Shown piece by piece: positions 33,466 through 62,571 of a DNA stretch of 64,000 nucleotides; position 1 is the first letter of the stretch, and each line of letters opens with the position of its first letter. A program made the translations under genes and the position numbers. The DNA comes from Candidatus Methylomirabilota bacterium (GTDB lineage Bacteria; Methylomirabilota; Methylomirabilia; Rokubacteriales; CSP1-6), in contig JBKPAK010000020.1 in NCBI GenBank assembly GCA_046726415.1, positions 1,995-65,994 of the forward strand, written 5' to 3'. Under the pieces are notes generated by a model. The model was given only the letters and a program-made list of their open reading frames with translations, did no database searches and was not told where the DNA came from.

Positions 33466-33613
33466 GATCGAGCATTTTCAGCTTGCCATGACGGCGGGCG
33501 GGTGGTGCGATGACTGGCCTCGGATCCGAGCGTCTGGCTATCGTGCAGACGTGGGACGTCCGCGGGGCGGGGGTCCCGCCGTCCAGGTCGAGCCGGTGAA
33601 CAGGAGGACCGCG

Positions 33614-34978: not shown

Positions 34979-35074
34979 CCGGCGCCGACCGCCGAGGGAA
35001 TTGACCATGACGGCGACCGGCTCCGAGCGCCGAGCCCTTCGAGGGCAACGCGGCCCCAAGGCCTGGATTCCCCG

Positions 35075-36106: not shown

Positions 36107-36209
36107 CTCGTTCCTCCGCTTGAAAGCAGGCGCCAGTAAGTATACTTTCCGCAAGCCAGCTGCCTGTCTCCCCGGAAAGGCGCCGCGCACTAGCACCAAG
36201 GAGGGCGTT

Positions 36210-37265: not shown

Positions 37266-37291
37266 ATCCACTCAGCCGAGACGGCGGGCCC

Positions 37292-42996: not shown

Positions 42997-43058
42997 CGGT
43001 CAGGGCCGGTGAAGCGAACGGTGAGCCGGGTGGCCGCCGGTGTGATCGAGGCCGCGGC

Positions 43059-47000: not shown

Positions 47001-50000
47001 ACGGTTACGTCGGCTGGCCGAGACCCGGCGATGATTTGGACGGGGCTGCCGCGCTGAAAGGCGAAGGTCGTGCGCAGGGCCTCATGGCGCGCGACGAGCA
47101 AGTCCAGACTCTGCTGCAGGGCCGGGAGATCGAGGGCGCCCCCGAGGCGAACAGCGGAGGCGATGTTGTGGAGCGGGCTGTCGGGGGTGAGCTGGTTGAG
47201 GAACCACAGGCGCTGCTGAGCGAAGGAGAGCGGGCAGGGACCCGTATCGAGACGGCGCGGAATTGCCCCATTCTCTGCGCGCGGGGCGAGGTCGCTCGGC
47301 CGGCCGAAGGCAGCGCGGCCTGCGTCGATCAGCGTGGCCAGCTGCGCCACGCTGGGCGACTCGAACAGGGCGCGGAGGGACACGTCGGCGCCGAAGGAAT
47401 CCCGCAGTCGAGCCACCATCCGCATGCCGAGCAAGGAGTGGCCGCCCAGGTCGAAGAAGTTGTCATGGACGCCGACCTCGGGGAGGTCGAGCAGATCGCA
47501 CCAGATCTGAGCGATGAATCGTTCGGTCGCCGTGGTTGGCGGTGCGAGCCGCGGCACTGGAGCCCCGTCCGCAATGGCATCGGGCAACGCAGAGCGATCG
47601 ACTTTCCCGGAGGGCGTGAGCGGCAAGGTTGGGAGGGGCACGAAGACGGAGGGGATCATATAGTGCGGCAGCTTCTGCCCAAGGTAGGCGCGGAGGTCGG
47701 CCGCGGAGGGTTCAGCCCCGCCGCGGCCGACCACGTAGGCCACCAGGCGCTGGTCACCGGAGTGGCTCTCGCGGACGACCACGACTGCGTGGCCCACGAG
47801 CGGGTGCTGCCCCAGAACCGTTTCGATTTCCCCGAGCTCGATGCGGAAGCCCCGAATCTTGACCTGGTGGTCGAGACGGCCGAGGAAGTCGAGCTGTCCG
47901 TCGCTGCGGTAGCGGACGAGGTCTCCCGTCCGATAGAGGCGCGCGCCCGGGCGGCCGGCGAACGGATCCGCCACGAATCGCTCGGCGCTCAGGTCCGGTC
48001 GACCTCGGTAGCCGCGCGCCACCCCCGCGCCGCCGATGTACAGTTCGCCGGGCACGCCCACGGGCCGCGGTTGACCTCGCGGGTCGAGGACGTACACGCG
48101 GGTGTTGGCGAGCGGCCGTCCGATGGAAACGGCGCCGTCCCCGGGCGTCACTCGATGCGCGGTGGACCAGATCGTCGTCTCCGTTGGCCCGTACAGATTC
48201 CAGACCTCGCTGGCGCGGGAGAGGAGCTCCGCGGCCAAGCCGCGCGCGAGCGCTTCGCCCCCACACAGCGCCTTGAACGGCCGGCGGCCTTCCCAGCCGG
48301 CCTCGAGCAGGAGCCGCCACGTGGCAGGCGTCGCCTGCATCACCGTCGTTCCCGATCGCGTGATCCACTGCGCGAGCTGCCGGCCGTCCGCCGCCGCGTC
48401 CTGGCTGACCACCTCGACCTTGGCGCCGACGACGAGCGGCAGGATCAGCTCCAGCACCGCGATGTCGAATGAGATGGTGGTGACGGACAGCATCTGGTCC
48501 GATGGCGTCAGAGTCAGGATCTCCTGCATCGCGCCGAGAAAGTTCGCCACGGCTCGGTGAGGGATCTCCACGCCCTTGGGGCGCCCCGTCGAGCCCGAGG
48601 TGTAGATCGCGTAGGCCAGCGACTCCGGGTCGATCGGTCCCGAGGGGGGCCCGGCGCTGCGGTCAGAGAGTTCCGCACAGTCCGAATCCACATAGACGAC
48701 GGTGGTTGTCCCGGCCGGGACGCGATCGCGGAGCGAGGTCCGCGTCAGAAGAACGACCGCTTGGGAGTCCTCTAACATGAAGCCGAGCCGCTCGGTGGGG
48801 AACGTCGGATCGAGGGGCACATACGCCCCCCCCGCCTTGAGAACGGCCAGGAGCGCCACGACGAGATCTGCGGACCGCTCGAGACAGAGGCCGACCAGGA
48901 CGTCCGGCCCGACGCCGAGTTCACGAAGGCGATGCGCGAGGCGGTTGGCGCGGTGATTGAGCTGCTGGTACGTCACAGTTTCCCCGCCGCACACCACGGC
49001 CACGGCCTCCGGAGTCCGGCCCGCCTGGGCGTCGAAGAGAAGCGGCACGGTCGTGGCCGGATAGTCCCGCTCAGTGGCGTTCCACCGCCCTAAGATCTGA
49101 CCGCGATCCTCCGCTGACAGTACGCTGACGAACCCGATGTTCTGCTGCGGATCGGCGGCCAGCCCCTCCAGAACCGCCTGGTAGGAGCGAAGCCACTGCC
49201 GGATGGTATCGGACTCGAAGAGATCGATGTTGTAGTACCAATCCACCACCAGGTTCCCCGCGGACTGCGCGATGTTCACGTCCACGTCGAAGTTGATCGC
49301 GCGCCGAGGCGGGATGACGAGCTCGGCCTCGAGACCGGCGAACTTCGGCGCCACCGCGGGGGGGTCGAGATTGAAGATCACCGATGTGAGCGGCAGTCGG
49401 CTCCGATCGCGAGGGAGGCGGAGCTTCTCGAGCAGGCTGCCATAGGTGTAGCGCCGGTGATCGTGGACGTCGAAAACGATGGTCTTCAGCGAACTCAAAT
49501 AGTCCGCGAATGGCATGTCAGGCTCGAGGCGGCTCCGCACCGGCAAGAGGCTTGCGCAGTGTCCCACCACGTCGTTGGCGCCTTCTGCCGTCTGCCCTGC
49601 CACCACGATGCCGACGACGATGTCCTCGTGCCCGGTCAGCCGATGGAGCACCACCTTCAGTCCGGCCAGGAGCGCGGTGAAGAGCGTGCTGCCGCGCGAC
49701 GCGCCCAGGTGTCGCAGCGCACGGCCGAGCGCCGCCGGCAACGTGAGGCGTTCTCGGCCCGCCCGGTACGTCTTCACAGCGGGTCGCGGCCGGTCGGCCG
49801 GCAGCTCGAGGACGGGCACAGGGGCCGCGAACTGCTCGAGCCAGTACTGCTCGGTCGCTGTCCGGGCCGCGGTGCCCTCGAGCTCGCGCTCCTCGCGAGC
49901 ATAATCGGCGAACTGCCTGGCCGGACCCAACGGGGCGGTCCGACCCTGGCGGACGGCTGAATAGAGAGTCCCGATCTCCTCGAGCAAGATTCCGAGCGAC

Positions 50001-50503
50001 CATCCGTCCACCGCGATGTGGTGCACGGATACGAGGAGGACGTGGTGCTCCTCGCCGAGCCTCGCGATGCGGGCGCGCAGCACGGGGCCCCGACCGAGGT
50101 CGAATGGGTCCCACACGTCCTGCCGCGCGAGTTCGTCGAGCAGCCCCTCTCGTTGCGCGGGCGGTCGCGCCGACAGGTCGTCCAGGGGCACATCCACCGG
50201 CATGAACGCCTCCAGGATGCACTCCTTTCCATCCGCGCTGAATCGGCTGCGCAGGGCGTCATGTCGCGCAACGAGCTGCTGGATCGCCTCCCGGAGCGCG
50301 CTCACCTGACACGGCCCGCGGAGGTGTACGGCCACCGCGTCGGCGAACGCCCGCGATCCGTCCTCGCCCATCTGGGTGGCCAGCCAGATCTCCCGCTGCG
50401 CCTCGGTCATCGGCAAGGTGGTCGGGGCGGATTGCTCCTGTCTGAACGGATCGAAGTCGACCGGCGTCAACGTGAGGGAAGAGAGACGCGGCTCGGTGGT
50501 CAT
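44060..50503 (-). CDS. NRPS, two modules: C-A(Gly)-T-C-A(Gly)-T
   Basis: 2147 aa from ATG 50503. Approximate domains: C 49139-50416 (HHIAVDG); A 47549-49066; T 47318-47536 (GGHSL); C 45959-47242 (HHIASDG); A 44384-45886; T 44129-44341 (GGHSL). A-core motifs are 'YTSGS(T/S)G.PKG', 'NLYGPTE', 'GELxIGG', 'YxTGD', 'GRxDxQVKxRGFRIELGE' and 'GKVDR'. The first 184 codons of the track ORF are read-through over the PKS gene. Confidence 0.95.
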   Translation of the reverse strand: MTTEPRLSSLTLTPVDFDPFRQEQSAPTTLPMTEAQREIWLATQMGEDGSRAFADAVAVHLRGPCQVSALREAIQQLVARHDALRSRFSADGKECILEAFMPVDVPLDDLSARPPAQREGLLDELARQDVWDPFDLGRGPVLRARIARLGEEHHVLLVSVHHIAVDGWSLGILLEEIGTLYSAVRQGRTAPLGPARQFADYAREERELEGTAARTATEQYWLEQFAAPVPVLELPADRPRPAVKTYRAGRERLTLPAALGRALRHLGASRGSTLFTALLAGLKVVLHRLTGHEDIVVGIVVAGQTAEGANDVVGHCASLLPVRSRLEPDMPFADYLSSLKTIVFDVHDHRRYTYGSLLEKLRLPRDRSRLPLTSVIFNLDPPAVAPKFAGLEAELVIPPRRAINFDVDVNIAQSAGNLVVDWYYNIDLFESDTIRQWLRSYQAVLEGLAADPQQNIGFVSVLSAEDRGQILGRWNATERDYPATTVPLLFDAQAGRTPEAVAVVCGGETVTYQQLNHRANRLAHRLRELGVGPDVLVGLCLERSADLVVALLAVLKAGGAYVPLDPTFPTERLGFMLEDSQAVVLLTRTSLRDRVPAGTTTVVYVDSDCAELSDRSAGPPSGPIDPESLAYAIYTSGSTGRPKGVEIPHRAVANFLGAMQEILTLTPSDQMLSVTTISFDIAVLELILPLVVGAKVEVVSQDAAADGRQLAQWITRSGTTVMQATPATWRLLLEAGWEGRRPFKALCGGEALARGLAAELLSRASEVWNLYGPTETTIWSTAHRVTPGDGAVSIGRPLANTRVYVLDPRGQPRPVGVPGELYIGGAGVARGYRGRPDLSAERFVADPFAGRPGARLYRTGDLVRYRSDGQLDFLGRLDHQVKIRGFRIELGEIETVLGQHPLVGHAVVVVRESHSGDQRLVAYVVGRGGAEPSAADLRAYLGQKLPHYMIPSVFVPLPTLPLTPSGKVDRSALPDAIADGAPVPRLAPPTTATERFIAQIWCDLLDLPEVGVHDNFFDLGGHSLLGMRMVARLRDSFGADVSLRALFESPSVAQLATLIDAGRAAFGRPSDLAPRAENGAIPRRLDTGPCPLSFAQQRLWFLNQLTPDSPLHNIASAVRLGGALDLPALQQSLDLLVARHEALRTTFAFQRGSPVQIIAGSRPADVTVVDLRAWPAAPRETELGRLLRQEAGRPFDLTRDLLLRAAVVRLAADECVLLLVSHHIASDGWSLGVLFQELAALYEAFTHGRPSPLPALPIQYADFALWQRQMLEGPAVTAQRAYWIQQLAGVPPLLELPTDRPRPAVQSYRGAHHYFALPAALTADLLALSRREDVTLFMCLLAAVQTLVHRLSGQSDIVVASPIAGRSRPDLEPLIGVFVNTLALRTSAADDPSFRDLLGRVRRVTLDAYDHQDLPFEKLVEDLRPERSLGHAPLAQVMFVLENTAPIALALPGLTARPIDTETGASEFDLTLFLRESSEGLRGALQYNTDLFDPPTIARLAGHFRVLLEGIVASPTERLSALPLLTDDERRQLLVDWNATGAAHPQQATLPDLLEAQAECSPDAIAAVFEDAALTYRELHRRANQLSHHLRGRGVGPNCRVGLCVERSLDMLVGVLGILKAGGAYVPLDPTYPPERLAFMLADAQAPILVTQRALEDTLDNHDAQTVYLDADWDLISLEPEAPPVSGVTADDVAYVIYTSGSSGQPKGVQVPHRALVNFLASMLRTPGVTAHDCLLAVTTLSFDIAGLELFLPLLVGARVIIARRDTTSDGAQLVGLLARHQVTIMQATPATWRLMLEASWPGTPGLAILCGGEALSTDLATALCRRGVSVWNLYGPTETTIWSTLHRVSGTDDPVPIGRPIANTEIYLLDPHLQPVPVGVPGELHIGGCGLAHGYLHLPDLTAQKFIRHPFSADPNARLYKTGDLARYRADGTLDYLGRLDHQVKLRGFRIELGEVENALARCPGVRESVVVLREDAPELKRLLAYVTSAVAGADLSETELRVHLRRRLPEYMIPSAFVVLDALPLAPNGKVDRRALPARDESGRADRPTASPRSDTEKALAAIWADVLQQDRVDIHDNFFDLGGHSLLAARLIARAREQFAVELPLRSLFIAPTVAGLAEVVDTLTWASGKEHSAPIGARDEIEL

Positions 50504-53500
50504 CGCCTCTCGCCCACCTCTAGGTACTTGCCGGGCCGATCGGGGTCGGGGATGAACCAGGCCTCGCGCCCACTCGGGTCCCGCCCCCTTCGCGCCCCGG
50601 GCAGCGGTGGGGTGGCCGGCCCAGTGCTGGGTAGCAGACCGACCTCCTGCATCTCCGCCACCGTCTCGGCGAACGCCTGGACCACGCGATCGATGTCCTC
50701 GTCCGAGTGCGCCGTACTCAAGAAGGCCGGTCGCCCTTCCCAGACGTGGAGGCCTTTGGCCCGGAGCCACGCGAAGACCACCGGGGCGAACGGATAGTCG
50801 GGCGGCAAGCCTATGCAGAAGAAGGAGCTGAAATGCGTGAGGCGGATCGGGGCCTGCGCCCGCGCGACGACGGCCCTCAGCGCCTCGACCAAGCGCGTCG
50901 TCCGCTCGTTGAGCCGCCGCTGTAGCTCTGGCCCCTCTTCCTCGAGGTGGATCAGGCAGGCCCGGGCGGCGGCCAGGGCCAACGGGTGGCGCACGAAGGT
51001 CCCGGCGAAGAAGGTGACACCGATCTCTGGAAAGGTAAGATCGCCATACTGCCACATGCCCCCGTCGAGAGCGTCCATGAACTCGCGCCGGCCGGTCACG
51101 ATCCCGATCGGTAAGCCTCCGCCGATGACCTTGCCGTAGGTGGCGAGGTCCCCCTGAATGCCGAGCATGGCTTGGACGCCTCCAGGGTGGGCGCGGAAGC
51201 CGGTGACCACCTCGTCACAGATGAGAGCCGTGCCCGAACTGGCGGTGAGCTCGCGGAGCTCGCGCAGGAACTCCCAGGGCTGGAGGTCGGGCCTCCGGCT
51301 CTGCACTGGCTCGACGAGCACCGCGGCCAGCTCGCCCGCCTGAGCCCGCAGCAGGTCGAGGGAGGCCGACTGACCGTACTCGAGGACGATGACATTGTCC
51401 GCCATCCCAGCGGGGATGCCCGGGGCGATCGGGCGCGAACGCAGTACCCCATCGCTCAGGGTGGGGCGCACGAGCACTTCGTCGAACACGCCGTGGTAGG
51501 CGCCGGCGAACATGGCGATCCGGTCGCGCCCGGTCACCGTGCGAGCCAGCCGGATGGCCGCCATCACCGCCTCAGAACCCGTGTTGCAGAAGGCCGCGCG
51601 GTCCATCCCGGTGAACGCGCAAAGTCGCCGGGCCACCTCGCCGGCCAGCGGTGATTGGGGACCGATCTCAAATCCCAGCCGCAGCTGGGCCTCAACGGCC
51701 GCGGTCACGAACGGCGGGGCGTGGCCGAAGAGGACCATTCCGAAGCCGTTGGTCAAGTCGACGTACTCGTTCCCATCCACGTCCCACAGCTTCGAGCCGG
51801 CGGATCGGACGGTGACGATCGGGTAGACCGCTTCCTTCCAAGGCAGACGGAAGCCCGCCACCGAACGCGGATCGGCCAGGTGGCGACGGTGCTGTTCAGC
51901 CAGGCGCTTGGAGCCCTGGGTGCGCGCCGTGTAGCGGGTGATGAAGGCCTCCAGGCTTCTCTGCTGGGACGGTGTGAGGCCGCCACCCGTGCCCTTGTCG
52001 ATCGGCCGGTAGGGCCCGAAGGCCCGGGACTCTTGACTCGCGGAGTCGGCCAAGGCGGCTTGGTAGGCCGGGCTCACGGGCACGCCGTCAGGCGGCCGCT
52101 CTGGGGTTGCGCGGGCGCCTCCGCCGGCGGATGCCGCAGGGGCGCCACTGCGCAGGAGGTCGAGCTGTCTGGACATCAGCTCGAGCTGCTGGGCGACCAG
52201 CCATTCCACGGAACCGACGGCGGCGTCGGGTTTCTCGCGCCGCGGAACCTCGAAGCGAGAGCCATCCTCCTGGCTTTCCGGCCGGACAGCCGACCCTCGA
52301 GGTACAACCTCGCTCGACTCGGTCGTAGACGAGACGGGGACACGGACGGAGGGGGCCGGCGACGGGTTGGGCGGCAAGGTGCGATCCAACCAATCCGCCA
52401 ACGCTCCGGGCGACGCGAGATCCTCGAGGAGCTGTCGGAAGCTGATCTTCACGCCGAAGGCCTTCTGTATCGCCGCGCTGGCCTGAGTGAGGCTAAGGGA
52501 GTCCAGGCCGGCCTCCACAAACGGGGTGTCGTGGTCCAGCGCCGCGGCGTCGATGCCGGAAAGCTCCGCGAACAGAGCTCGCACGCGGCCCAGTAGGATA
52601 GCGTGCCGACCTGGCGTCGGGGTGACCTCGACAGGAGTGTCTGCCATGCTCTCCTCGCTCCGACTGTCGTCCGCGGCGGCCGTCGGAATCCCCGCCATCC
52701 CGACCGCCGTCACGGTTTCCGGCGACGCCTCCGGCGCTCGTTCGGCGCTGGTGGGCGGGTCGATCCAGAACCTCTGCCGCTCGAACGGATAGGTCGGCAG
52801 CGGCAGGCGACGGCGCCGCTGCCCGTCGTGGACCGCCGCCCAGTCGATGTCGGCTCCGGCGATCCAAAGACGTCCCAGGGCATCGAGAATCGATTCGATG
52901 TCAGGGCCCGCATTCTCGTCGAGCGGCAGCGAAGCGATCACTGTCTGGCCTGCGGACCGATCGGTGTGCTGTCGAGCCAGCGCGGTGAGGCTCCGGCCCG
53001 GGCCGACCTCGAGGAGCAGTTGGCTGCCTTCGCGCACGAGCAGAGCCACGCCGTCGGCGAATCGGACAGGTTGCCGGAGCTGTCGCGCCCAGTACGCTGC
53101 GTCCATTGCCTCTGCGGCGGTGATCCACTGCCCGGTCACGCCGGACACCCACGGCACCTGTGGAGGCTTGAGGCGGACACCTCGCATGACCGCCTCGAAT
53201 GGCTTGAGGACGGAGTCCATCATGGAAGAGTGGAAGGCGTGCGAGGTCGGAAGCCGGCGGAAGGCGACGCCGCGTGCGCCGAGTTCCGCCTCAAGAGCCT
53301 GAACCGCCTCCGCGTTCCCCGCCACGACCGTGACCGCGGGGCCGTTAAGCGCGGCCACCGATAGGGTGCCAGACAGAAGCGGCTCGACTTCAACCGCGGG
53401 GAGTCGCACGGCGAGCATCACGCCGCCCGGCATGCTCTGCATGAGCCTCGCCCGCTCGGCGACCACCCGCAGGGCATCCTCACGCGAGAGGACGCCGGCC

Positions 53501-55422
53501 AGGCACGCCGCCACGTATTCGCCGAGGCTGTGGCCAATCATCGCCTGGGGCTTCACCCCCCAGCGCATCCAGAGGTCGGCCAGCGCATACTCGATGGCGA
53601 ACAGGGCGGGCTGGGTGACGCGCGTTTCCTCGAGGAGGGCCGCGGCCGCCGCGGCGCCAGTGGCATCCGGATAGAGCACCGTTCGTAGGTCCAGCTCCAG
53701 CTCCGGCTGCAGAGTCTCCGCGCATTCGTCGACGGCGGTCCGAAAGGCCGCCTCGCCCTGGTAGAGTCCCCGCGCCATGTTCACCCGCTGCGCGCCCTGC
53801 CCGGGGAACAGGAAGACCACGGGCGCCGCGCGGGCATCGCACTGGGTGCTCACCAGGTGCTCGGCCTCCGGCCGGCGTAGCGAGGTGATGGCCTCGGCAC
53901 CATCACGGCACACCAGCATCCGCCGATGGGCGAATCGCCGGCGGCCGGCCTGGAGCGTGAAGGCCACATCGGCGAGGTCGAGTCCCGGCGACGTCTCCAG
54001 GCACCGGGCGAGGCTGGCCGTGGCCTGTTCGAGGGCAGAGGCCGTCCTTGCCGAGATCACCAGCAACTGCTCGCGCCGGGCCGGCGCCGGACCCGGCGGT
54101 GTTGGCGCCTCTTCCAAGACCACGTGAGCGTTGGTGCCGCCCACGCCGAAAGAGCTCACCCCGGCTCGGCGCGGCGTCCCGCCCGGCGGCCAGTCAACCA
54201 GCCTCGTGGCAACGTAGAACGGGCTGTTCTCCAATTCGAGCTTCGGATTCGGCGCTGTGAAGTGCAGACTGGGGGGAATCTTTCGATGCCGCAGGGCCAT
54301 CGCGGCCTTGATCAGGCCGACGATCCCCGCCGCCGCGTCCAAATGCCCGATGTTCGTCTTCACCGACCCGACGGCGCAGAAGCGAGTCGCGGAAGTACCG
54401 GCCCGGAAGGCCTGGGTGAGCGCGGCGATCTCTACCGGGTCCCCAAGGGGGGTCGCGGTGCCGTGCGCCTCGACCAGGGAGATGGTTTCCGGCTCCACGC
54501 CAGCGAGAGACTGGGCCAGAGCGATGCACTCGGCCTGGCCATCCACGCTGGGCGCCGTGAAGCTCACCTTGGTGGCGCCATCGTTGTTGAGCGCCGCCCC
54601 CTTGATTACCGCGTAGACGTTGTCGCCGTCGGCCAGTGCGTCGGCCAGGCGCTTGAGCACGACGATGCCGACCCCATTGCTGAATACGGTGCCCGCGGCC
54701 TCGACGTCGAAGGCCCGGCAGTGGCCGTCAGGGGACGTGATGGCGCCTTCCTGATAGAGATATCCGCGTTGCTGGGGGAAGGTGATGGACACGCCGCCGG
54801 CTAGCGCCGTGTCGCACTGATAGTCGATCAGGGCCTGCACGGCCTGACAGACAGCCACCAGCGAGGTCGAGCAGGCGGTGTAGACGCTCACGCAGGGCCC
54901 GCGCAGATCCAGCTTGTAGGCGACCCGGGTGGCCAGGTAGTCCTTTTCATTGCCCATCATGACAAGCAGACCGCCCGCCCGCTGGATCGCGACCGGATTG
55001 GGATACAAGTTCTCCAGGAAGTAGGTGTTGTTGCTCATCCCAGCCCAGACGCCGATCGCACCCCGGTACATCCTCGGGTCATAGCCCGCATCCTCGAGCG
55101 CGGTCCAAGCCGTTTCCAGGAACACCCGCTGCTGAGGATCCATGACGGCCGCCTCGGTGGGGTTGATGCCGAAAAACGCGGCATCGAACAGCTCGGCGCC
55201 GGGCAGGACACCCCGCGCCGGCACGTAATTCGGGTCCTTCCTCATACCGGGTGATTCGGCCCGACAGGGCTCTAGCTCGTCGGTCGCGAAGCGAGAAATC
55301 GACTCGACTCCGCCCTCAATGTTCCGCCAGAATTCCCCCACGTCCCGGGCACCGGGGAAGCGTCCGGCCATCCCGATGATGGCCACGCCGTCCATGGGAT
55401 CTCCGTGATCCGAGTGCGCCAT
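50500..55422 (-). CDS. Type I PKS module fused to a class III (PLP) aminotransferase: KS-AT-ACP-AMT
   Basis: 1640 aa. KS 54112-55392 ('YTACSTSLVA', 'EAHGTATPLGDP', 'KTNIGHLDAAAG'). AT 52933-53823 ('FPGQGAQ', 'GHSLGEY', 'SHAFHS', the malonyl-type HAFH). ACP 52387-52620 ('GLDSLSL'). AMT 50653-52020 ('DLTNGFGMVLFGH', 'NTGSEAVMAAIRLAR', 'LICDEVVTGFR', 'YGKVIGGGLP'). I recognised no KR, DH, ER or MT motifs. Confidence 0.95.
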   Translation of the reverse strand: MAHSDHGDPMDGVAIIGMAGRFPGARDVGEFWRNIEGGVESISRFATDELEPCRAESPGMRKDPNYVPARGVLPGAELFDAAFFGINPTEAAVMDPQQRVFLETAWTALEDAGYDPRMYRGAIGVWAGMSNNTYFLENLYPNPVAIQRAGGLLVMMGNEKDYLATRVAYKLDLRGPCVSVYTACSTSLVAVCQAVQALIDYQCDTALAGGVSITFPQQRGYLYQEGAITSPDGHCRAFDVEAAGTVFSNGVGIVVLKRLADALADGDNVYAVIKGAALNNDGATKVSFTAPSVDGQAECIALAQSLAGVEPETISLVEAHGTATPLGDPVEIAALTQAFRAGTSATRFCAVGSVKTNIGHLDAAAGIVGLIKAAMALRHRKIPPSLHFTAPNPKLELENSPFYVATRLVDWPPGGTPRRAGVSSFGVGGTNAHVVLEEAPTPPGPAPARREQLLVISARTASALEQATASLARCLETSPGLDLADVAFTLQAGRRRFAHRRMLVCRDGAEAITSLRRPEAEHLVSTQCDARAAPVVFLFPGQGAQRVNMARGLYQGEAAFRTAVDECAETLQPELELDLRTVLYPDATGAAAAAALLEETRVTQPALFAIEYALADLWMRWGVKPQAMIGHSLGEYVAACLAGVLSREDALRVVAERARLMQSMPGGVMLAVRLPAVEVEPLLSGTLSVAALNGPAVTVVAGNAEAVQALEAELGARGVAFRRLPTSHAFHSSMMDSVLKPFEAVMRGVRLKPPQVPWVSGVTGQWITAAEAMDAAYWARQLRQPVRFADGVALLVREGSQLLLEVGPGRSLTALARQHTDRSAGQTVIASLPLDENAGPDIESILDALGRLWIAGADIDWAAVHDGQRRRRLPLPTYPFERQRFWIDPPTSAERAPEASPETVTAVGMAGIPTAAADDSRSEESMADTPVEVTPTPGRHAILLGRVRALFAELSGIDAAALDHDTPFVEAGLDSLSLTQASAAIQKAFGVKISFRQLLEDLASPGALADWLDRTLPPNPSPAPSVRVPVSSTTESSEVVPRGSAVRPESQEDGSRFEVPRREKPDAAVGSVEWLVAQQLELMSRQLDLLRSGAPAASAGGGARATPERPPDGVPVSPAYQAALADSASQESRAFGPYRPIDKGTGGGLTPSQQRSLEAFITRYTARTQGSKRLAEQHRRHLADPRSVAGFRLPWKEAVYPIVTVRSAGSKLWDVDGNEYVDLTNGFGMVLFGHAPPFVTAAVEAQLRLGFEIGPQSPLAGEVARRLCAFTGMDRAAFCNTGSEAVMAAIRLARTVTGRDRIAMFAGAYHGVFDEVLVRPTLSDGVLRSRPIAPGIPAGMADNVIVLEYGQSASLDLLRAQAGELAAVLVEPVQSRRPDLQPWEFLRELRELTASSGTALICDEVVTGFRAHPGGVQAMLGIQGDLATYGKVIGGGLPIGIVTGRREFMDALDGGMWQYGDLTFPEIGVTFFAGTFVRHPLALAAARACLIHLEEEGPELQRRLNERTTRLVEALRAVVARAQAPIRLTHFSSFFCIGLPPDYPFAPVVFAWLRAKGLHVWEGRPAFLSTAHSDEDIDRVVQAFAETVAEMQEVGLLPSTGPATPPLPGARRGRDPSGREAWFIPDPDRPGKYLEVGERR

Positions 55423-55423: not shown

Positions 55424-58400
55424 CTACGGGTTCCGGCCGATCCTTCGCGGTCGGGATTGCGCGTCCCGCTGGCGCCGAGCCCGATCTCGAACGTGGCTCA
55501 GGCAAGATGCCTCGTTCGGCTGGTGGCTGAGGTAGCCGGCCAGCGCACTGACGGTGGGGTATTGGAGCAGCGCCACGATGGGAAGGTTCAGGCCCAGCCG
55601 GGCCTGGAGCCGGGTGTGGGTCTCGACGAGCAGAATAGAGTGCCCGCCGAGATCGAAAAAGTTATCGTCGAGCCCGACCCGCTCTACTTCGAACAGCTCC
55701 TGCCAGATCGCGGCGATGGCCTGCTCGAGCCGCGTGCGCGGGGCGAGATACGCCGCGCCCTCCTTCGAGCGGTGATCGAGCCCCGCGACCGCCAGCTGCC
55801 CGTCTGGAGGTGGAGGCAGCACCGCCAGGATGTCGGCGATCGTCCGTCGCGTGGCGGTAGTCATGGCCTCGAGGACCGCGGCCAAAGCGGCGAGCGAGCG
55901 GCGGATCGCCGCGCCGTCGAACTGGTTGCGGCGGTAGATCATCTTCAGCCGGAGCTCAGGAGCCGGCGTCACCACCAGAGTCAACGGATAGTTGGTCGCC
56001 TCCGGCATCGAGACCGGAGCGATCTCGACGGTTGGTCCCAGCCGGCGCGCCTCCTGGCTGACGGCGTAGTTCTGGAAGACGAGCAGACTGTCGAACAGGC
56101 GAAGCCGCCACGGAATGCCCGTCCAGGCCTGAATCTCGAGCGGGGAGACGTACTGGTGGAGCACGGCATCGGCCTGCTTGTCCTGTGCCTCGGCGAGCCA
56201 GACCGGTACAGACATCTCCGGCCTGACCTGGAGCCGGATGGGGAGATTGCTCACGAAGGTCCCCACCATCGATTCGATACCGGCCACCTTAGGTGGTCGC
56301 CCGGAGAACGTGACCCCGAAGACCACGTCGGCCTGGCCACTGCGATGGCTCAGGAGTAAGCCCCATGCCCCTTGGACGAGCATGCTCAAGGTGAGGTGAT
56401 AGCTCCGCGCAAACGAACGGAGGGCCGCCCCAGTCCGCTCTGACAGCCTCACCTCTTCCTCGGCGTGCGACTGCCCTGCGCCCTCTGAGCGTCCCGCCGG
56501 CGCAGGCGGCAAGCCGAGCGGGGTGGGCGCGGTGAAGCCCGCGAGCCAGCGCCGCCAGAAGGCCTCGGTCTCCGTACTGTTCCGACCTTCCAGCCAGCCG
56601 ATGTAGTCGCGGTACGCGTGGGGGGGCGCGAGTCTGGCATCTCGGCCCGCGCGGAGGGCTTCGTAGCACTCCGACAGCTCGGAGAAGATTAGGGGCCACG
56701 ACCAGCCGTCGACGTGGAGGTGATGGGTGGTCCAGAGAAGGTGGAACGTTTCGTCGGCCAACCGGAGGAGCGTCACGCGCGTGAGTGGAGCCCGCGACAG
56801 GTCGAAGCCCTGAGCGGCGTCCGACTCCACGAGTTCGGCCAGTCGCGTGCTCTGGTCGGTGGCGGAGAGAGCACTCCAGTCGTGCTCGCTCCACGGCAGC
56901 GCCACGCGGCGGACGACGACCTGCAACTCCCGCTGGCCGTCGGAGACGAAGGCGGTGCGGAGAATCGAGTGCCGATTGACGACCAGTTCCCACGCGCGCC
57001 GCAGCGCCGGCGCGTCCACCGAGCCGTGCAGGCGGTACTGCCACTGCTCCAGCCCGGAGCCGGCGGCCTCCATCGAGTGAAACAGGCGCTGCATGGGAGA
57101 CAACGCGTATATGTCTTCCACCTCCTCGAGGTCGCAGGGAAGCCGGTCGAGAAGAGCCAGGTCGAACGCCGCCGGCGCGACGTGGGCCGGCCGTGCGTCA
57201 GTTGCCCCTCGCGTCTCACAGGCCAGGAGCACTTCGCGCACAGCCTCGACGAAGCTCTGGGCCAATCGCTCCACCGTCTGCCGGCGGTGGATGTTTTCGC
57301 TGTACGTCCACCGCATCTGGAGCCGTCCGTGAATGACCAGGGCCAAGAGGTCGATCAGGTGCCGCCGCGGAGCTCGTGGGCTGTGCCAGGGGCCGGCGGG
57401 TTCCGCGGCGAAGCGGAAGAGGCCGGAGCCGGCCAGAACCTGGTCGAACTGACCGAGGTAGTTGAACAGCACCGCGGGCTGGGGATGGTCGCCGAGGAGG
57501 GTGGCGGTGGTCGGATCGCCGAGGTAGCGAAGGACGCCGTAGCCAATGCCTCGGCCCGGGACCTGCCGCAGTTGCTCCTTCACCGCGTGGAGCACGTCGG
57601 CGAGGGGACCACGCGGGGGCTCGAGCCGCAGCGGGAAAATGCTGGTGAACCAACCCACGGTCCGCGAGAGATCCACATCGTCGAAGATCGCCTCCCGACC
57701 GTGGCCCTCGACATCCACGCAGAGGGACCCGCCCTTCGTCCATCCGGTGAGGCACCGCGCCAGCGCCGCCAACAAGACGTCGTCGACCTGCGCGCGGAAT
57801 ACTTGGGGCACCCGCTGCAGTAGCGCACGTGTCTCCTCGATCCCGATGGACCACGTCACGGTTCGAGCGGACATCTCGGTGTTGGCACCGCCCTCGAAGT
57901 CGACAGGGAGGCGGGCGGAGTCCACGTTCGCGGTGGCCAGCCAATGACTGAGCTGATTCCGGCAGGCTGGCCACTGCGCGTACTCAATGAGCCGCTGCGC
58001 CCAACGCCGATACGACGTCGTCCGGGCGGGCAGCCGCACCGTGTCGCCCCCATGCAGTGCTCGGTAGAGCGTGTCCACATCCCCCAAGAGGATTCGCCAG
58101 GACACCCCATCGATCACCAAATGATGGGCGATGACAAGGAGCCGGCCCGGGCGCCGGGGGCCGAGTCCGAAGTGGGCTATTCGCAGGAGTGGGCCATCGG
58201 CGATGTCGAGAGTGCGCTGGAGCTCAGTCGCCTTCGCTTCGATGGCGGCTGGCAATTCGGCGTCTGGCCGTCCAGAGAGGTCTATCTCCGCGACAGAGAT
58301 GGTCCCGCCATCGTTGCTATAGCGCTGCTCCCAGCCGTGGGCGCCGCGCCGGAACCGCAGCCGGAATGAGTCGTGGTGATCGACGACGTGCTGGCTTGCC

Positions 58401-61400
58401 GCTTCCAGAGCCTGTACATCCACGTCGGTCGGCACCTCGAACAGGAAGGCTTGGTTCCAGTGATCAGGCTCCGGTAGTTCCTGCTCGAAGAACCAGCGCT
58501 GGATCGGAGTGAGGGGAACGCACCCCTCCGCTCGATGGCCGTCGTCCTGCGGCGTCGCGACTGCCGTCACCGCAGCCAGCTCGGCGATCGTCGAGTGCTG
58601 GAACAGCTCCCGAGGCGTGAACGATAGACCAGCCTGACGGGCGCGCGCGATGATCTGGATCGCGAGAATCGAGTCCCCGCCCAGCTCGAAGAAGCTGTCG
58701 TGGACGCCAACCCGCTCGAGCCCGAGCACGGCGGCCCAGATGCCGCTCAGGGTCTCCTCGATGGCCGTCCGGGGAGCCACGTAGCCCCCACGCACGTCGG
58801 GACGCGTCTGATCGAGTGCGGGCAACGCCTTTCGGTCCACCTTCCCGTGGCCGGTTAGCGGGAGCCCGTCGAGCCGCACGAACGCGGCGGGCACCATGTA
58901 GTCGGGAAGCTTGGCCCGCAGGAAGCCGCGTATCTCGTCGGCCATGAGCGGCGCGTCGCGGTCAGCGACGTAGTACGCCACCAGCCTCTTGTCGCCCGGG
59001 ATGTCCTCACGGACGATGACCACCGACTCCCGCACCGCCGAGTGCTGGGCCAGCGCCGATTCGATCTCCCCCAACTCGATCCGGAAGCCCCGAATCTTCA
59101 CTTGGTCGTCGATTCGGCCGAGGTACTCGAGATCCCCATTGGGCAGCCGCCGTGCCAAGTCCCCCGAACGGTAGAGCCGCGCGCCCGGAGCGGCAGTGAA
59201 CGGGTCGGCGATGAATCGCTCGGCGGTGAGCTCGGGCCGGTTCAGGTAGCCACGCCCCACGCCGGCACCACCTATATAGATCTCCCCGGCCACTCCGATC
59301 GGGACGGGACGGAGCCAGCGATCCAGAACATAGACCTGGAGGTCTGGGATCGAACGGCCGATGACGCTGCCGCTGCCGGAAAGGACGTCGTTGAGCGCGA
59401 TCGGACGGTAGGTGACATGCACGGTGGTCTCGGTAATGCCGTACATGTTGATGAGCCGAGGCGGCCGATCTCCAAACCGCTCGAACCAGGGCCGCAGCGC
59501 TTGCAGGTCCAGCGCCTCGCCGCCGAAGATAACGTACCGAAGGGCGAGCCCACGCGACTCGCCCTCCAGTATCACCTGCATCAGCTGTCGAAATGCCGAC
59601 GGCGTCTGGTTCAACACCGTCACCTGCTCCCGGTACAACAGCTCGGCGAACGCCTCCGGCGAGCGACTCACCCAGTAGGGCACCAGCACGAGCCGGCCTC
59701 CGTACAAGAGCGCGCCCCACAGCTCCCACACGGAAAAGTCGAACGCGTACGAGTGGAACAGGGTCCATGCGTCCGCGGGGCCGAAGCGGAACCACGGGTC
59801 GGTGGCGTCCATGAGCCGGACGACGTTCCGATGGGTGATGAGGACGCCCTTGGGACGCCCGGTGGACCCTGACGTGTAGATGACGTAGGCCAGGCTGTCG
59901 GCCGTAGCGCCGCCGGAGACATTGTCTTCGGCTGCGCCGCCGTCAGCTGCCTCTTCGCCCGAATCGCCCTCGAGCAGGACCATCCGAGCTCGATGCGGGG
60001 GCAGTGCGGAGGCCAGTTCGCCCTGGGTCAGCAGAACGGCGACTTCGGAATCCTCCAGCATGAAGGCGAGGCGATCCTTGGGGTACCGGGGATCGAGTGG
60101 GAGATAGGCGCCCCCCGCCTTCAGGATGGCGATGATCGCCATGACCATGTCCACGGATCGCTCGACGAAGAGCCCGACCAAAACCTCCGGCCCCACGGAG
60201 AGCTCCCGCAGGCGGCGAGCCAGCCGGTTTGCGCCGCGGTTCAGCTGTCGGTAGGTCAGCGCCCGCCCATCATGGATCACCGCCACCGCGTCCGGCGTTC
60301 GCGCAACCTGCCGCTCGAATCGCTGGTGAATGCACAAGCCGTTGGCGGGGCCGATGGGGAGTGGGTTCGGGCTAGGCACCAGCTCGGCGCGCTCTGTCGC
60401 GGTGAGATACGGCACCGCCCGCAGCGGTTGGTCTGCGGCAGTGATCATCCCCTCGAGAAGGAGGCCGACATGATCCAGCATCCGCGCCGCGGTGTCGTCG
60501 TCGAATCGCCGGCGGTCGTACTCCAGGCGAAGGAGCAGCTCGGCGTCCGCATAGGCAATGAAGGTGAGCGGGTAGTTCGTCTGCCCGAGGTAGCGAAAGC
60601 GCCGGCCGGTCCACTCTCCTCCCTGCGCGCGCAACGCGGTGTTCAGGAGGTAGCGCTCGTAGACCACGAGACTCTCGAAGAGCGGCGTACCGCGCGGCAC
60701 GTCGCTCCAGTCCTGGATCTTGACCAGCGGTGTGTGCTCGTGCGCGCGCAGGGCCACCCCTTGGCGGCGAAGCTCTCGCAGCCAGGGCACGAGCGGCGCG
60801 TCGGATTTCACGCGAACCCGAACGGGCAGGGTATTGATGAACAGCCCCACCATGTCGTCGGCACCCTCGAGGGACGAGCGCCGACAAGCCCGGGTGGCCC
60901 CAAAAACGATGTCGTCCTCGCCGCTGTAGATGTGAAGCAAGAGCGCCCAGGCGCCTTGCAGCAGGGTGTTGACCGTGAGCTCATGCTTCTCGGCGAAGTC
61001 CCGGAGCCCGGCGGTGACGTCGGCGGCCACTCGTGCCTCGTGGGCGCCGTGAGTTCCCTGCGCGGCAGGTGCCGTGCGCGGGTTTTGCCCCACTCGCAGC
61101 GGCGTCGGTGTCGTGAAGCCTTTGAGCAGGCGCCGCCAGTACTCTTCCGCGCGGGCGGGATCCTGTCCATGCAGCCACTCGATGTAGTCGCCGTACGGCC
61201 GCGGCAGGGGAAGGTCGAGCTCCCGCCCGTCGCGGATCGCCTCGTAATAGGCGAAGACCTCCCGGAGCACGAGCGGGAAGGAGCGCCCGTCGAGCACGGC
61301 GTGGTGGAACGTCCACAACAACCGGGCCACTCGGCCGGGTAGCCAGACCAGGGTCAGGCGCATCAGCGGCGCCTGGCTCACGTCGAAGCCTCGCCGGCGA

Positions 61401-61753
61401 TCGGCCTCGAGCAGAGTTGACCACCGCGCCTGGCAATCCCCAGCGTGGATCGTGGACCAGTCCAGCTCGGCCACGGGGATTTCCACCGAGCGGTAGACCT
61501 CCTGCACCGACTGCGCGACCCCGTCGACGCGGAACCGCGTCCGCAAAATCGGGTGTCGGGCGACGACTCGCTGCCAGGCGGTGAAGAGGGCCGGCGCGTT
61601 CAGCACCTCGTCCAGATCGCAGATGATCTGCTCGATGTCGACGCCGGACGCATCGGACGAAAGACTGTGGAAGAGCATCCCGTGCTGAAGGGGCGAGAGC
61701 TCGTAGGAGGCTTCAACGGCTCGGTGGAGGCCCAACGGTGTCATGGGACACAT
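55424..61753 (-). CDS. NRPS: C-A(Thr)-T-E-C-T (terminal C-T has no A domain)
   Basis: 2109 aa. C 60419-61711 ('LSPLQHGMLFHS', 'HHAVLDG'). A 58829-60346 ('YTSGSTGRPKG', 'NMYGITE', 'YRSGD', 'GKVDR'). T 58574-58786 ('GGDSI'). E 57224-58522 ('PLTPIQRWFFE', 'HHLVIDGVSWR', 'EGHGRE', 'FNYLGQ'). C 55829-57121 ('LSPMQRLFHS', 'HHLHVDGWS'). T 55529-55747 ('FFDLGGHSI'). The alternative ATG at 61744 overlaps the PPTase stop (ATGA). Confidence 0.95.
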   Translation of the reverse strand: MCPMTPLGLHRAVEASYELSPLQHGMLFHSLSSDASGVDIEQIICDLDEVLNAPALFTAWQRVVARHPILRTRFRVDGVAQSVQEVYRSVEIPVAELDWSTIHAGDCQARWSTLLEADRRRGFDVSQAPLMRLTLVWLPGRVARLLWTFHHAVLDGRSFPLVLREVFAYYEAIRDGRELDLPLPRPYGDYIEWLHGQDPARAEEYWRRLLKGFTTPTPLRVGQNPRTAPAAQGTHGAHEARVAADVTAGLRDFAEKHELTVNTLLQGAWALLLHIYSGEDDIVFGATRACRRSSLEGADDMVGLFINTLPVRVRVKSDAPLVPWLRELRRQGVALRAHEHTPLVKIQDWSDVPRGTPLFESLVVYERYLLNTALRAQGGEWTGRRFRYLGQTNYPLTFIAYADAELLLRLEYDRRRFDDDTAARMLDHVGLLLEGMITAADQPLRAVPYLTATERAELVPSPNPLPIGPANGLCIHQRFERQVARTPDAVAVIHDGRALTYRQLNRGANRLARRLRELSVGPEVLVGLFVERSVDMVMAIIAILKAGGAYLPLDPRYPKDRLAFMLEDSEVAVLLTQGELASALPPHRARMVLLEGDSGEEAADGGAAEDNVSGGATADSLAYVIYTSGSTGRPKGVLITHRNVVRLMDATDPWFRFGPADAWTLFHSYAFDFSVWELWGALLYGGRLVLVPYWVSRSPEAFAELLYREQVTVLNQTPSAFRQLMQVILEGESRGLALRYVIFGGEALDLQALRPWFERFGDRPPRLINMYGITETTVHVTYRPIALNDVLSGSGSVIGRSIPDLQVYVLDRWLRPVPIGVAGEIYIGGAGVGRGYLNRPELTAERFIADPFTAAPGARLYRSGDLARRLPNGDLEYLGRIDDQVKIRGFRIELGEIESALAQHSAVRESVVIVREDIPGDKRLVAYYVADRDAPLMADEIRGFLRAKLPDYMVPAAFVRLDGLPLTGHGKVDRKALPALDQTRPDVRGGYVAPRTAIEETLSGIWAAVLGLERVGVHDSFFELGGDSILAIQIIARARQAGLSFTPRELFQHSTIAELAAVTAVATPQDDGHRAEGCVPLTPIQRWFFEQELPEPDHWNQAFLFEVPTDVDVQALEAASQHVVDHHDSFRLRFRRGAHGWEQRYSNDGGTISVAEIDLSGRPDAELPAAIEAKATELQRTLDIADGPLLRIAHFGLGPRRPGRLLVIAHHLVIDGVSWRILLGDVDTLYRALHGGDTVRLPARTTSYRRWAQRLIEYAQWPACRNQLSHWLATANVDSARLPVDFEGGANTEMSARTVTWSIGIEETRALLQRVPQVFRAQVDDVLLAALARCLTGWTKGGSLCVDVEGHGREAIFDDVDLSRTVGWFTSIFPLRLEPPRGPLADVLHAVKEQLRQVPGRGIGYGVLRYLGDPTTATLLGDHPQPAVLFNYLGQFDQVLAGSGLFRFAAEPAGPWHSPRAPRRHLIDLLALVIHGRLQMRWTYSENIHRRQTVERLAQSFVEAVREVLLACETRGATDARPAHVAPAAFDLALLDRLPCDLEEVEDIYALSPMQRLFHSMEAAGSGLEQWQYRLHGSVDAPALRRAWELVVNRHSILRTAFVSDGQRELQVVVRRVALPWSEHDWSALSATDQSTRLAELVESDAAQGFDLSRAPLTRVTLLRLADETFHLLWTTHHLHVDGWSWPLIFSELSECYEALRAGRDARLAPPHAYRDYIGWLEGRNSTETEAFWRRWLAGFTAPTPLGLPPAPAGRSEGAGQSHAEEEVRLSERTGAALRSFARSYHLTLSMLVQGAWGLLLSHRSGQADVVFGVTFSGRPPKVAGIESMVGTFVSNLPIRLQVRPEMSVPVWLAEAQDKQADAVLHQYVSPLEIQAWTGIPWRLRLFDSLLVFQNYAVSQEARRLGPTVEIAPVSMPEATNYPLTLVVTPAPELRLKMIYRRNQFDGAAIRRSLAALAAVLEAMTTATRRTIADILAVLPPPPDGQLAVAGLDHRSKEGAAYLAPRTRLEQAIAAIWQELFEVERVGLDDNFFDLGGHSILLVETHTRLQARLGLNLPIVALLQYPTVSALAGYLSHQPNEASCLSHVRDRARRQRDAQSRPRRIGRNP

Positions 61754-62571
61754 GAGTCAACCCCAGGACCTTCGTGGAGCCGCCTCTTGTGGCCCACCCA
61801 TGCCCCGCACACCAGACGTTCGATAGCGCCCTCGACGGCAATCGCCGCGACATGGCTCCGATCGATCGGCACCTCATGAAGGCTGAAGTGCTCGCTCTCG
61901 CCCGGACTGTTCTCGATGCGCAGCAATCGAGCCGGCTCCCCGGGCGCAAAGGCCACGTCAAAGTTCGCGAGAGGGTAGGAGAGCCCCTGCCCGAGGGCCT
62001 TGACGATTGCCTCCTTCCGCGTCCAGCAGCGAAAGAACGCGGAGAGCTGCTCGTCAGGTCGCAGCGACCGGAGCACTTGACGCTCCTGGGCCGAGAAGAC
62101 GCTGGCGGCTAGCTCGTCGAGGTCCTCTACCGCTCGGATCAGCTCGATATCGACGCCGATCTCTCGGTCGCGCGTCAGTGCGCACAGGGCAAGCCCATGT
62201 GAATGGGACAGGTTGAAGCGGAGCCCGTCCCCGCCCGCATCCCCGGATAGGGAGGGCTTGCCATGAGCGCTGTACTCGAACTCGAGCCGATCCGGGTCGA
62301 CGCCACAGTAGCCGGCCAAGACCTCCCGCAGGAAGCCGCGGCCGACCACAAACCGCTTCCGGTCCCGCTCGAAGTGAAACCTCGCCGCCCGTGCCGCCTC
62401 ATCCGCGGACAGCGCGCTGGCGAGCCGCCGAACCTCGGGCGCGAGCTGATCCAGATCCGCCACCCACACATGGATTTCGCCTCCGGGCAGCGGGACGCTG
62501 GCTGCCGGAGTCGGCAAGCATAGGGATCGAGGACCCGCTTGGACGTTGGACTCGAAGTGCACCACCGTCAC
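61741..62571 (-). CDS. 4'-phosphopantetheinyl transferase, Sfp type (first gene of the NRPS/PKS operon)
   Basis: 'EIHVWVADL', 'HGKPSL', 'FNLSHSHGL', 'GVDIELI', 'FFRCWTRKEAIVKALG'. The start is uncertain (GTG 62571 or a downstream TTG/GTG). Confidence 0.85.
   Translation of the reverse strand: MTVVHFESNVQAGPRSLCLPTPAASVPLPGGEIHVWVADLDQLAPEVRRLASALSADEAARAARFHFERDRKRFVVGRGFLREVLAGYCGVDPDRLEFEYSAHGKPSLSGDAGGDGLRFNLSHSHGLALCALTRDREIGVDIELIRAVEDLDELAASVFSAQERQVLRSLRPDEQLSAFFRCWTRKEAIVKALGQGLSYPLANFDVAFAPGEPARLLRIENSPGESEHFSLHEVPIDRSHVAAIAVEGAIERLVCGAWVGHKRRLHEGPGVDSCVP

Follow-up and report, generated by a model that had tools for sequence, protein, structure and literature searches.

How does a nonribosomal peptide synthetase (NRPS) use a terminal module that holds a condensation (C) domain and a carrier (T) domain without an adenylation (A) domain? 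The question arises from a biosynthetic operon in a 64-kb stretch of DNA from a Candidatus Methylomirabilota bacterium (assembly GCA_046726415.1, contig JBKPAK010000020.1, positions 1,995 to 65,994), referred to here as the window; all coordinates below are window positions. The first synthetase of the operon, NRPS-1, ends in a C-T pair, denoted C2-T2, and is followed by the gene of a polyketide synthase (PKS) that begins with a ketosynthase (KS) domain. We tentatively favour, at a probability of roughly 0.45, the reading that C2-T2 would be a working elongation module whose own A domain was lost long ago and which would follow the logic of the yersiniabactin synthetase HMWP2. The parts of NRPS-1 (E, epimerisation domain; aa, amino acids) are the following:

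55424-61753, minus strand: NRPS-1, 2109 aa, C1-A(Thr)-T1-E-C2-T2; open reading frame (ORF) with Pfam and NCBIfam matches.
60389-61738, minus strand: C1, the N-terminal condensation domain, HHAVLDGRS, DCL-like (D-configured donor, L-configured acceptor) or starter-like; Pfam (aa 1-450) and PDB matches.
58829-60319, minus strand: A1, the sole adenylation domain of NRPS-1, code DFWNIGMVH (Thr); Pfam, NCBIfam and specificity code.
58544-58768, minus strand: T1, a carrier of the kind found before E domains, with FFELGGDSI and Ser1028; Pfam (aa 1001-1061).
57158-58519, minus strand: E, aa ~1080-1530, with intact HHLVIDGVSW, EGHGRE and FNYLGQFD; motifs and alignment with the E domain of PvdL.
55826-57121, minus strand: C2, a DCL-type domain of an A-less clade, HHLHVDGWSWP at aa 1677-1687 and VFQNY at aa 1892-1896; Pfam, PDB ranking, tree and signature.
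55751-55825, minus strand: the linker between C2 and T2, about 25 aa, TRRTIADILAVLPPPPDGQLAVAGLDHRSKEGAA, where a canonical module has an A domain of about 500 aa; read from the sequence.
55529-55750, minus strand: T2, a carrier of peptidyl carrier protein (PCP) type, FFDLGGHSI, with Ser2039 at nt 55637-55639; Pfam and motif.
55427-55528, minus strand: the basic C-terminal tail past T2, ending RDRARRQRDAQSRPRRIGRNP; sequence and orthologue conservation.

An initial annotation, made from the letters of the window, had proposed the A-less module at 55529-57121, which corresponds to aa 1545-2075, and its motifs are found where it had placed them (HHLHVDGWS at aa 1677-1685 and FFDLGGHSI at aa 2032-2040, with Ser2039). 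Domains were called with Pfam and NCBIfam hidden Markov models (HMMs), and A-core motifs were sought by regular expression. Pfam recognised three stretches of the Condensation family in NRPS-1 (C1, E and C2; best score at aa 1545-1976), two PP-binding domains and a single AMP-binding domain (aa 479-837) with AMP-binding_C at aa 896-971. Similarly, TIGR01733, the model for amino-acid adenylation, matched once (aa 500-912), and the expressions for A3, A5, A8 and A10 gave one match each, every one in module 1. An HMM search of the excised C2-T2 segment returned no adenylate-forming hit at E<=0.01. The lead-in of T2, YLAPRT, begins at aa 2002, about 25 residues past the Pfam end of C2, whereas in module 1 the stretch from the end of C1 to the serine of T1 spans about 578 residues. 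Delineation by Pfam HMMs, which the annotation had suggested as a check, and the motif expressions thus leave neither an A domain nor an A-core motif between C2 and T2, where a canonical C-A-T elongation module has its A domain, and the terminal module of NRPS-1 is confirmed to consist of a condensation and a carrier domain without an adenylation domain. No further AMP-binding gene was found in the 64-kb window. The surroundings also proved to be as annotated: C2 is of DCL type and follows an intact E domain, T2 lies directly upstream of the KS gene (Pfam, PDB ranking), and the Thr code of A1 and the Gly codes of the A domains of the second synthetase, NRPS-2, were re-read as given.

The layout recurs in 47 related loci from metagenome-assembled genomes (MAGs) and soil metagenomes, which were gathered by a genome scan, contig look-ups and a metagenome scan and mapped by tblastn with the window's own domains as queries. 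In every one of them a domain of the C2 clade is followed by a carrier, with a gap of 67-163 nt between the tblastn matches, and an A domain lies between the two in none (0/47); nor does the conserved gene set of these loci include a stand-alone A domain. Given this recurrence, the A-less arrangement is far beyond chance. C2 is preceded by an E domain in 43 of the 47 loci; the remaining 4 have C2 at the start of their contig. In 44 loci the domain after T2 is a KS; 2 loci have a thioesterase (TE) there and 1 has a C domain. A Thr or near-Thr code (DFWNIGMVH, DFWNVGMVH, DFWCIGMVH or a partial DFWNIG) was read for the upstream A domain in 32 of the 35 loci where it was readable, whereas the specificity of the downstream A domains varies among loci (Gly, Thr, Ala-like, Ser, Asp) beside an unchanging C2-T2. 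The order C-A-T-E-C-T, followed by KS-AT-ACP-AMT (acyltransferase, acyl carrier protein, aminotransferase) and C-A-T, is present in a Rhodanobacteraceae MAG (L001), a further MAG (L002) and a Pedosphaera MAG (L003). Recurrent neighbours are a phosphopantetheinyl transferase (PPTase) gene next to C1 (17 loci), a TE with a docking domain (14) and a Cupin_8/JmjC gene (18). In one locus, L077 (10034-13126), a clade-type C2-T2 (49% identity) stands behind an Ala-like A domain, and directly after T2 come a C1-type domain (52% identity) and then a Gly module in place of a KS; the C2-T2 unit therefore has no strict link with Thr or with a PKS. The type of this following C domain was considered as a guide to the chirality of the residue on T2 and set aside, since C1-type domains also occur N-terminally after non-epimerised carriers (L007).

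The database neighbours of C2-T2 are of the same kind. All of the 50 closest proteins (44-52% identity) combine Condensation and PP-binding domains, none of them with AMP-binding, and domains with a following A domain appear only lower in the match list, below these 50. A phmmer search against 1.84 billion representatives, with matches ranked by summed scores, had giant multi-module NRPSs as its top 150, among which P0225, P0184, P0252, P0211 and P0178 were useful. In an alignment of 20 clade members with 40-54% identity, HHxxxDG, the T2 serine and about 80 other positions are invariant across phyla. The HHxxxDG motif is kept in all related sequences examined except L031, L065 and P0225, about 45 of the first 50 homologues have the T2 serine motif, and T2 orthologues show 56-60% identity. 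The conservation of HHxxxDG and of the T2 serine indicates that C2-T2 is under selection. The initial annotation had raised the question of a recent loss of the A domain; the comparison of orthologous clusters speaks against it, the A-less layout being old, kept across phyla and provided with a signature of its own. The basic tail past T2 is likewise common to orthologues (the same in L003 and P0225; consensus ERARRQREA) and is probably a docking element toward the KS protein.

What kind of condensation domain is C2? Its best solved relatives are the C domain after E in PvdL (375 bits), McyB C1 (337) and SrfA-C (273), followed by a domain of bacitracin synthase 3 (254) and TycB C1 (250); all are DCL domains by what is established of those synthetases, and those of PvdL, McyB, SrfA-C and TycB come after E domains. 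Lower scores were obtained with McyA (134 bits), AmbE CmodAA (PDB 7r9x; 104), CmnI (103) and the heterocyclisation (Cy) domains of BmdB and EpoB (46-87). These values place C2 outside the CmodAA clade by sequence (104 for AmbE and 134 for McyA versus 375 bits for a canonical DCL), and it carries HHLHVDG where a Cy domain would have DxxxxD; it would be at most HMWP2-like in its working and is, by its motifs, no member of the Cy family. Its position directly after E, its nearness to known DCLs and its HHxxxDG motif are those of a DCL, whereas its N-terminal, C5, C6 and C7 motifs are altered in the manner of its clade. Judged from its sequence, C2 is thus of DCL type, yet no ordinary DCL. Neighbour joining groups the A-less domains in a single clade, with C-T-TE proteins adjoining it and canonical C-A domains and the C1 of the window standing apart. 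The motifs of the A-less clade and of canonical DCL domains followed by an A domain compare as follows:

N-terminal motif: SPMQRLF..ME in the A-less clade (a 2-residue deletion; SPMQRLFHSME); SPMQQGMLFH or SPMQEGMLFH in canonical DCLs.
C3 motif: THHLxxDGWSWP in the A-less clade; HHLLVDGWS(T/Q/R) in canonical DCLs.
C5 motif: GPCV(N/T)NLPVR in the A-less clade, GTFVSNLPIR in the window; GLFINTLP in canonical DCLs.
C6 motif: HQ in the A-less clade; (Y/F)E in canonical DCLs.
C7 motif: VFQNY in the A-less clade; VFEN(Y/L) in canonical DCLs.

This signature coincides exactly with the absence of an A domain, and the standard motifs are retained in five canonical DCLs with a following A domain from the same set of loci (L048, L064, L076, L078 and L079). 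T2 is an ordinary PCP and keeps a lead-in resembling an A-T linker, YxAPRTxxE.

Some leads to the origin and the loading of the module were followed and abandoned. The C-A(Thr)-T-KS module of L076, considered as the ancestral full module, has canonical C motifs and falls outside the A-less clade. The A domains beside the nearest canonical C domains have scattered codes, uninformative as to the specificity of the lost A domain, and the LPPPP of the linker, taken at first as a relic of the LPxP motif of A-T junctions, is unconserved in orthologues. A comparison of carriers for a shared A-recognition surface was equally uninformative, T2 being 31-47% identical to other carriers.

Which enzyme, then, would load T2? 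NRPS-1 has one A domain and two carriers, with neither room nor motif for a second A domain; the A-less C-type domain and its carrier are C-terminal, and the KS begins the next protein. HMWP2 is organised in the same manner (ArCP-Cy1-A(E)-PCP1-Cy2-PCP2; ArCP, aryl carrier protein): PCP1 and PCP2 are loaded in cis by the one A domain of the protein, which also serves PCP3 of HMWP1 in trans; the first residue is subject to an E activity, and stereochemistry is expected to be fixed by the A-less Cy2 (PMC9547227). NRPS-1 resembles it in having one A domain for two carriers, a C-terminal A-less domain of the C superfamily with a carrier, an epimerising activity on the first residue and an NRPS-to-PKS junction between proteins directly downstream. 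The two differ in that HMWP2 works with Cy domains and Cys and has its E embedded in the A domain, whereas NRPS-1 has an HHxxxDG-bearing DCL, Thr and a separate E domain in line; moreover, double loading is established for HMWP2 and would hold for NRPS-1 by analogy. An HMWP2-type mechanism appears the simplest because no unseen component is needed. The initial annotation had held that T2 must be loaded in trans and had cited HMWP1 PCP3 as its precedent. A loader from outside the module remains the leading reading, loading in trans itself being hypothetical; within the yersiniabactin system, Cy2-PCP2 of HMWP2, loaded in cis, is a closer match than PCP3 of HMWP1. In capreomycin biosynthesis the A-less module of CmnI uses the A domain of another module, CmnA-A1, iteratively (PMC12400406); unlike C2-T2, CmnI is a separate protein with a distantly related C domain (103 bits), no E domain and no PKS junction.

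Following the HMWP2-like reading, A1 would activate L-Thr and charge T1, as the domain order and the specificity code suggest, and would also charge T2 in the same polypeptide. C1 may N-acylate the Thr bound to T1; no donor for it, whether an upstream carrier, an acyl ligase or an ACP, is evident in the cluster. The E domain would equilibrate the T1-bound residue between its epimers, and C2 would accept only a chain ending in D-allo-Thr from T1 and couple it to L-Thr on T2. With its basic tail, T2 would then pass the resulting (acyl-)D-aThr-L-Thr chain on to the KS of the PKS, which would extend it with malonate and transaminate the beta-keto group, the fate of the beta-amine being presumed. 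NRPS-2 would add Gly-Gly, and the docked Cys-thioesterase would release the product.

Several points weigh against this reading. The sequence provides the domain order, the codes, catalytic integrity, conservation and the absence of a nearby loader; that A1 reaches T2 we infer by analogy. In L002 the A domain and C2-T2 are on separate proteins. The substitutions of the clade in the catalytic motifs C3, C5, C6 and C7 track A-lessness rather than the identity of the acceptor, which hints at altered chemistry; the canonical DCL-A(Thr)-T-KS module of L076 has ordinary motifs, and the C2 signature is kept behind a non-Thr A domain in three loci. Finally, the catalytic second His is lost in L031 (THRLCIDG), L065 (THQLLVDR) and P0225 (LPDLQIDG), all of which retain T2 and the remaining clade signature.

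Much of this evidence would suit a different role for C2-T2, that of a non-elongating transfer or gate module, which survives best among the alternatives and which we consider unlikely. In such a module C2 would accept only a D-configured chain and pass it, with no residue added, from T1 to holo-T2, whose free thiol would receive it; KS and TE would be blind to stereochemistry, and the step would supply an epimer-pure chain on a carrier suited to docking, as an NRPS counterpart of the KS0-ACP of trans-AT PKSs. That the A-less domains make up a functionally new class of C domains, dedicated to such transfer of the D-epimer from T1 to T2 without residue addition, is slightly less probable still. 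The conserved set encodes a loader in 0/47 loci, and the clade stands almost always before a KS or a TE (KS 44, TE 2, C 1 of 47), both of which would fit a transfer step, as would the changes in active-site motifs (the 2-aa deletion, DGWSWP, GPCVNN, HQ and VFQNY) that correlate perfectly with the absence of an A domain, the persistence of the rest of the signature in the three members without the catalytic second His, and the unchanged signature behind non-Thr A domains. In PKS-aminotransferase modules of the mycosubtilin type, too, the first carrier simply holds the starter acyl group. Transthiolation from carrier to carrier is chemically easy and is spontaneous in pacidamycin biosynthesis (PMC8748450). 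However, our full-text literature search found no non-elongating or transthioesterifying C domain, nor one with a phosphopantetheine thiol as acceptor; T1 could in principle pass the chain directly to the KS, and HMWP2, the closest characterised layout, adds a residue. In P0178, moreover, a canonical-type A-less C-T is followed by an LCL domain (L-configured donor), which implies loading of an L-amino acid there.

A rather improbable alternative is that T2 is aminoacylated, yet not directly by A1: the residue would come from one of the Gly A domains of NRPS-2 or from an A domain whose gene lies elsewhere, or Thr would pass from T1 to T2 by transthiolation, spontaneously or through a SyrC-like Cys-thioesterase. 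SyrC-type aminoacyltransferases have a Cys nucleophile, and so does the TE of this operon, whose GxCxG is conserved in the window, L009 and L010; the separation of C2-T2 and A1 on two proteins in L002 points in the same direction. A-T proteins and shuttles serve A-less C-T modules in syringomycin, zorbamycin and WS9326A biosynthesis (PMC8748450; PMC7539972): module 9 of SyrE is charged in trans by SyrB1, with SyrC shuttling threonyl groups (PMC8748450), and the A-less modules of WS9326A rely on trans A domains and a type II thioesterase shuttle (PMC7539972). The syringomycin and WS9326A clusters contain dedicated A-T loaders and shuttles, whereas the window and the 47 loci have none, except possibly the Cys-TE; no stand-alone A or A-T gene is found in the 64 kb or in the conserved core. 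The TE itself has a docking domain, overlaps the end of NRPS-2 and resembles releasing type I TEs, and the varying specificity of the downstream A domains beside a constant C2-T2 also speaks against this alternative.

The initial annotation had further allowed that C2 modifies the Thr residue; this could be a dehydration to dehydrobutyrine, with T2 holding the modified chain. Dehydrating C domains exist (AmbE CmodAA, PDB 7r9x), the module nearly always stands after a Thr module whose E domain is able to abstract the alpha-proton, and the active-site motifs of the clade are altered. Nevertheless, C2 scores 104 bits with AmbE CmodAA and 134 with McyA against 375 with a canonical DCL, the same signature stands behind Ala-like and other non-hydroxy A domains (L077 and others), and a second carrier would be unneeded for modification on T1, so that this reading is very unlikely. 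At least as doubtful, and put a shade lower, is the view, likewise raised by the annotation, that C2-T2 is vestigial and skipped, with the KS taking its chain from T1. Module skipping is known in other NRPSs, and the HH motif is damaged in three relatives; however, the catalytic motif, the T2 serine and the roughly 80 further invariant positions at 40-54% identity show a unit under selection, the docking tail lies past T2 and not past T1, and P0042 joins a C domain, a carrier and a ketosynthase (Pfam families) in a single polypeptide of 1005 aa. That the A domain is missing through an assembly or sequencing deletion in the window, a concern of the initial annotation, is practically excluded, since the reading frame is unbroken and the same short C-T gap recurs in 47 independent assemblies, so that the A-less layout is not a deletion artefact.

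Has such a layout been described before? A full-text literature search by domain layout (C-A-T-E-C-T, E-C-T-KS, KS-AT-T-AMT and similar) yielded the megapolipeptin synthetase MgpD as the only relative. MgpD is C-A(Val)-T-E-C-T-TE with a DCL-type second C domain, and its partner MgpB is KS-AT-T-TA-C-A-T; the authors assigned no role to the C-T pair of MgpD, and the product is without Val (PMC11411415). Compared by published domain layout, MgpD shares with NRPS-1 the E-C-T without an A domain and the DCL-type second C domain, and the megapolipeptin cluster shares with the present one a PKS-aminotransferase-C-A-T unit, a TE and a PPTase; its cupin hydroxylase, MgpG, has counterparts in many orthologous loci. 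MgpD differs in its A domain, which is for Val, and in having a TE in place of a KS after its last T.

The remaining genes of the operon, which is tightly packed on the minus strand and comprises five genes (PPTase, NRPS-1, PKS, NRPS-2 and a stand-alone thioesterase), are these:

61741-62571, minus strand: PPTase of Sfp type, with which the operon begins; Pfam ACPS and AASDHPPT_N.
50500-55422, minus strand: PKS, 1640 aa, KS-AT-ACP-class-III aminotransferase; Pfam and motifs.
44060-50503, minus strand: NRPS-2, 2147 aa, C-A(Gly)-T-C-A(Gly)-T; Pfam and specificity codes.
43059-44063, minus strand: stand-alone thioesterase; TubC-type docking domain at the N-terminus, nucleophile Cys in GYCLGG; Pfam and motif.

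The PKS and NRPS-2 genes overlap in ATGA and the NRPS-2 and TE genes in GTGA (the TE start being GTG), a 1-nt spacer separates NRPS-1 from the PKS gene, and the stop of the PPTase gene overlaps a candidate NRPS-1 start at 61744 (ATGA). From these junctions, all five genes are predicted to be translationally coupled, the PPTase/NRPS-1 overlap existing only if NRPS-1 starts at 61744; because of that overlap NRPS-1 may start three codons past the start of the longest ORF. Module 1 (C1-A-T1, 58544-61738) gave a strong though sub-threshold NCBIfam match to the solanimycin protein SolG (769 bits, cutoff 2200). The best PDB match of C1 is McyB C1 (361 bits, versus 204 for the starter C domain of SrfA-A), and C1 is 40% identical to C2. 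Extra NRPS modules precede the C1 orthologue in L007 and P0225; in L033/L034 the place before the Thr module is taken by a second KS-AT-ACP-AMT-C unit.

The catalytic residues of the PKS are all present (Cys in VYTACSTS, HGTAT and NIGH; GHSLG in the AT; ATYGK in the aminotransferase), and the HAFH motif of its AT corresponds to malonyl. In MycA (mycosubtilin/iturin) and McyE (microcystin), KS-(AT)-ACP-AMT followed by C makes a beta-amino acid within the peptide; the present PKS has the same order, with an upstream carrier that would hold the starter chain for the KS, although the starter carrier of MycA is loaded by an acyl ligase, whereas here the carrier stands behind a condensation domain. 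Both A domains of NRPS-2 have the code DILQLGLIW (Gly). Its two modules are 47% identical, and most orthologous clusters have a single module at this place. The second Gly module (C4-A3, 44500-47500) shows a strong strand bias, with a GC skew of +0.13 to +0.21 on the plus strand against values close to zero in the first module and elsewhere in the operon, and appears to have been inserted later from another source.

The nucleophile elbow of the TE is GYCLGG in the window and GFC(L/A)GG in the orthologues L009 and L010, with Cys and not Ser, and its N-terminal docking domain is of the TubC/AerJ type. In other systems, strained-ring formation or acyl shuttling has been associated with Cys-TEs; here the docking domain, the position after NRPS-2 and the likeness to releasing TEs argue for an off-loading enzyme. 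In the related loci that have it (among them L008-L010, L014, L015 and L017-L021), the Cupin_8/JmjC gene usually lies directly past the TE; no homologue of it was found in window positions 40001-64000. Glycosyltransferase, polysaccharide-flippase and Asn-synthase genes stand beside the cluster in several loci (L002, L003, L008/9). Directly downstream of the cluster in the window, the N- and C-terminal domains of an enzyme of the mandelate racemase/muconate-lactonising type are split over two plus-strand ORFs with weak coding statistics (41553-42374 and 42468-43178), which may represent a frameshifted or decaying gene. The region 17800-37300 contains genes of aromatic catabolism (Rieske oxygenases, a LigB-type dioxygenase, LigXa_C, amidohydrolase_2, P450 and oxidoreductases) together with several ABC transporters and appears unrelated to the NRPS-PKS operon.

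A-less NRPS modules are already known from HMWP2, SyrE, CmnI and WS9326A, and they also occur in enduracidin and ramoplanin biosynthesis. What is new is a clade of A-less domains, distinct, widespread, derived from DCLs and marked by a diagnostic signature, the fixed place of this clade in a conserved super-module, Thr-E-C-T followed by KS-AT-ACP-AMT, of uncultured soil bacteria, and the lack of a dedicated loader for the A-less module. Modules of this kind break the collinearity rule and defeat automated structure prediction, and the product of the present family is unpredictable until the cargo of T2 is known. SPMQRLF..ME, THHLxxDGWSWP and VFQNY provide a simple marker that separates the A-less domains from ordinary DCLs. 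The layout is explicable by precedent, but the signature of the clade and the absence of a loader allow for new chemistry. If C2-T2 were non-elongating, it would be the first such C-T module, combining stereochemical proofreading with a docking-competent carrier before a KS or TE; if the HMWP2-like reading holds, it would be a second, non-heterocyclising instance of HMWP2-type double loading. In either case, this widespread soil-bacterial family (PPTase, C-A(Thr)-T-E-C-T, KS-AT-ACP-AMT, C-A-T, docked Cys-TE and cupin) is a clean system, with one A domain and two carriers, in which an epimer-selective chain-transfer C domain can be set against HMWP2-type double loading.

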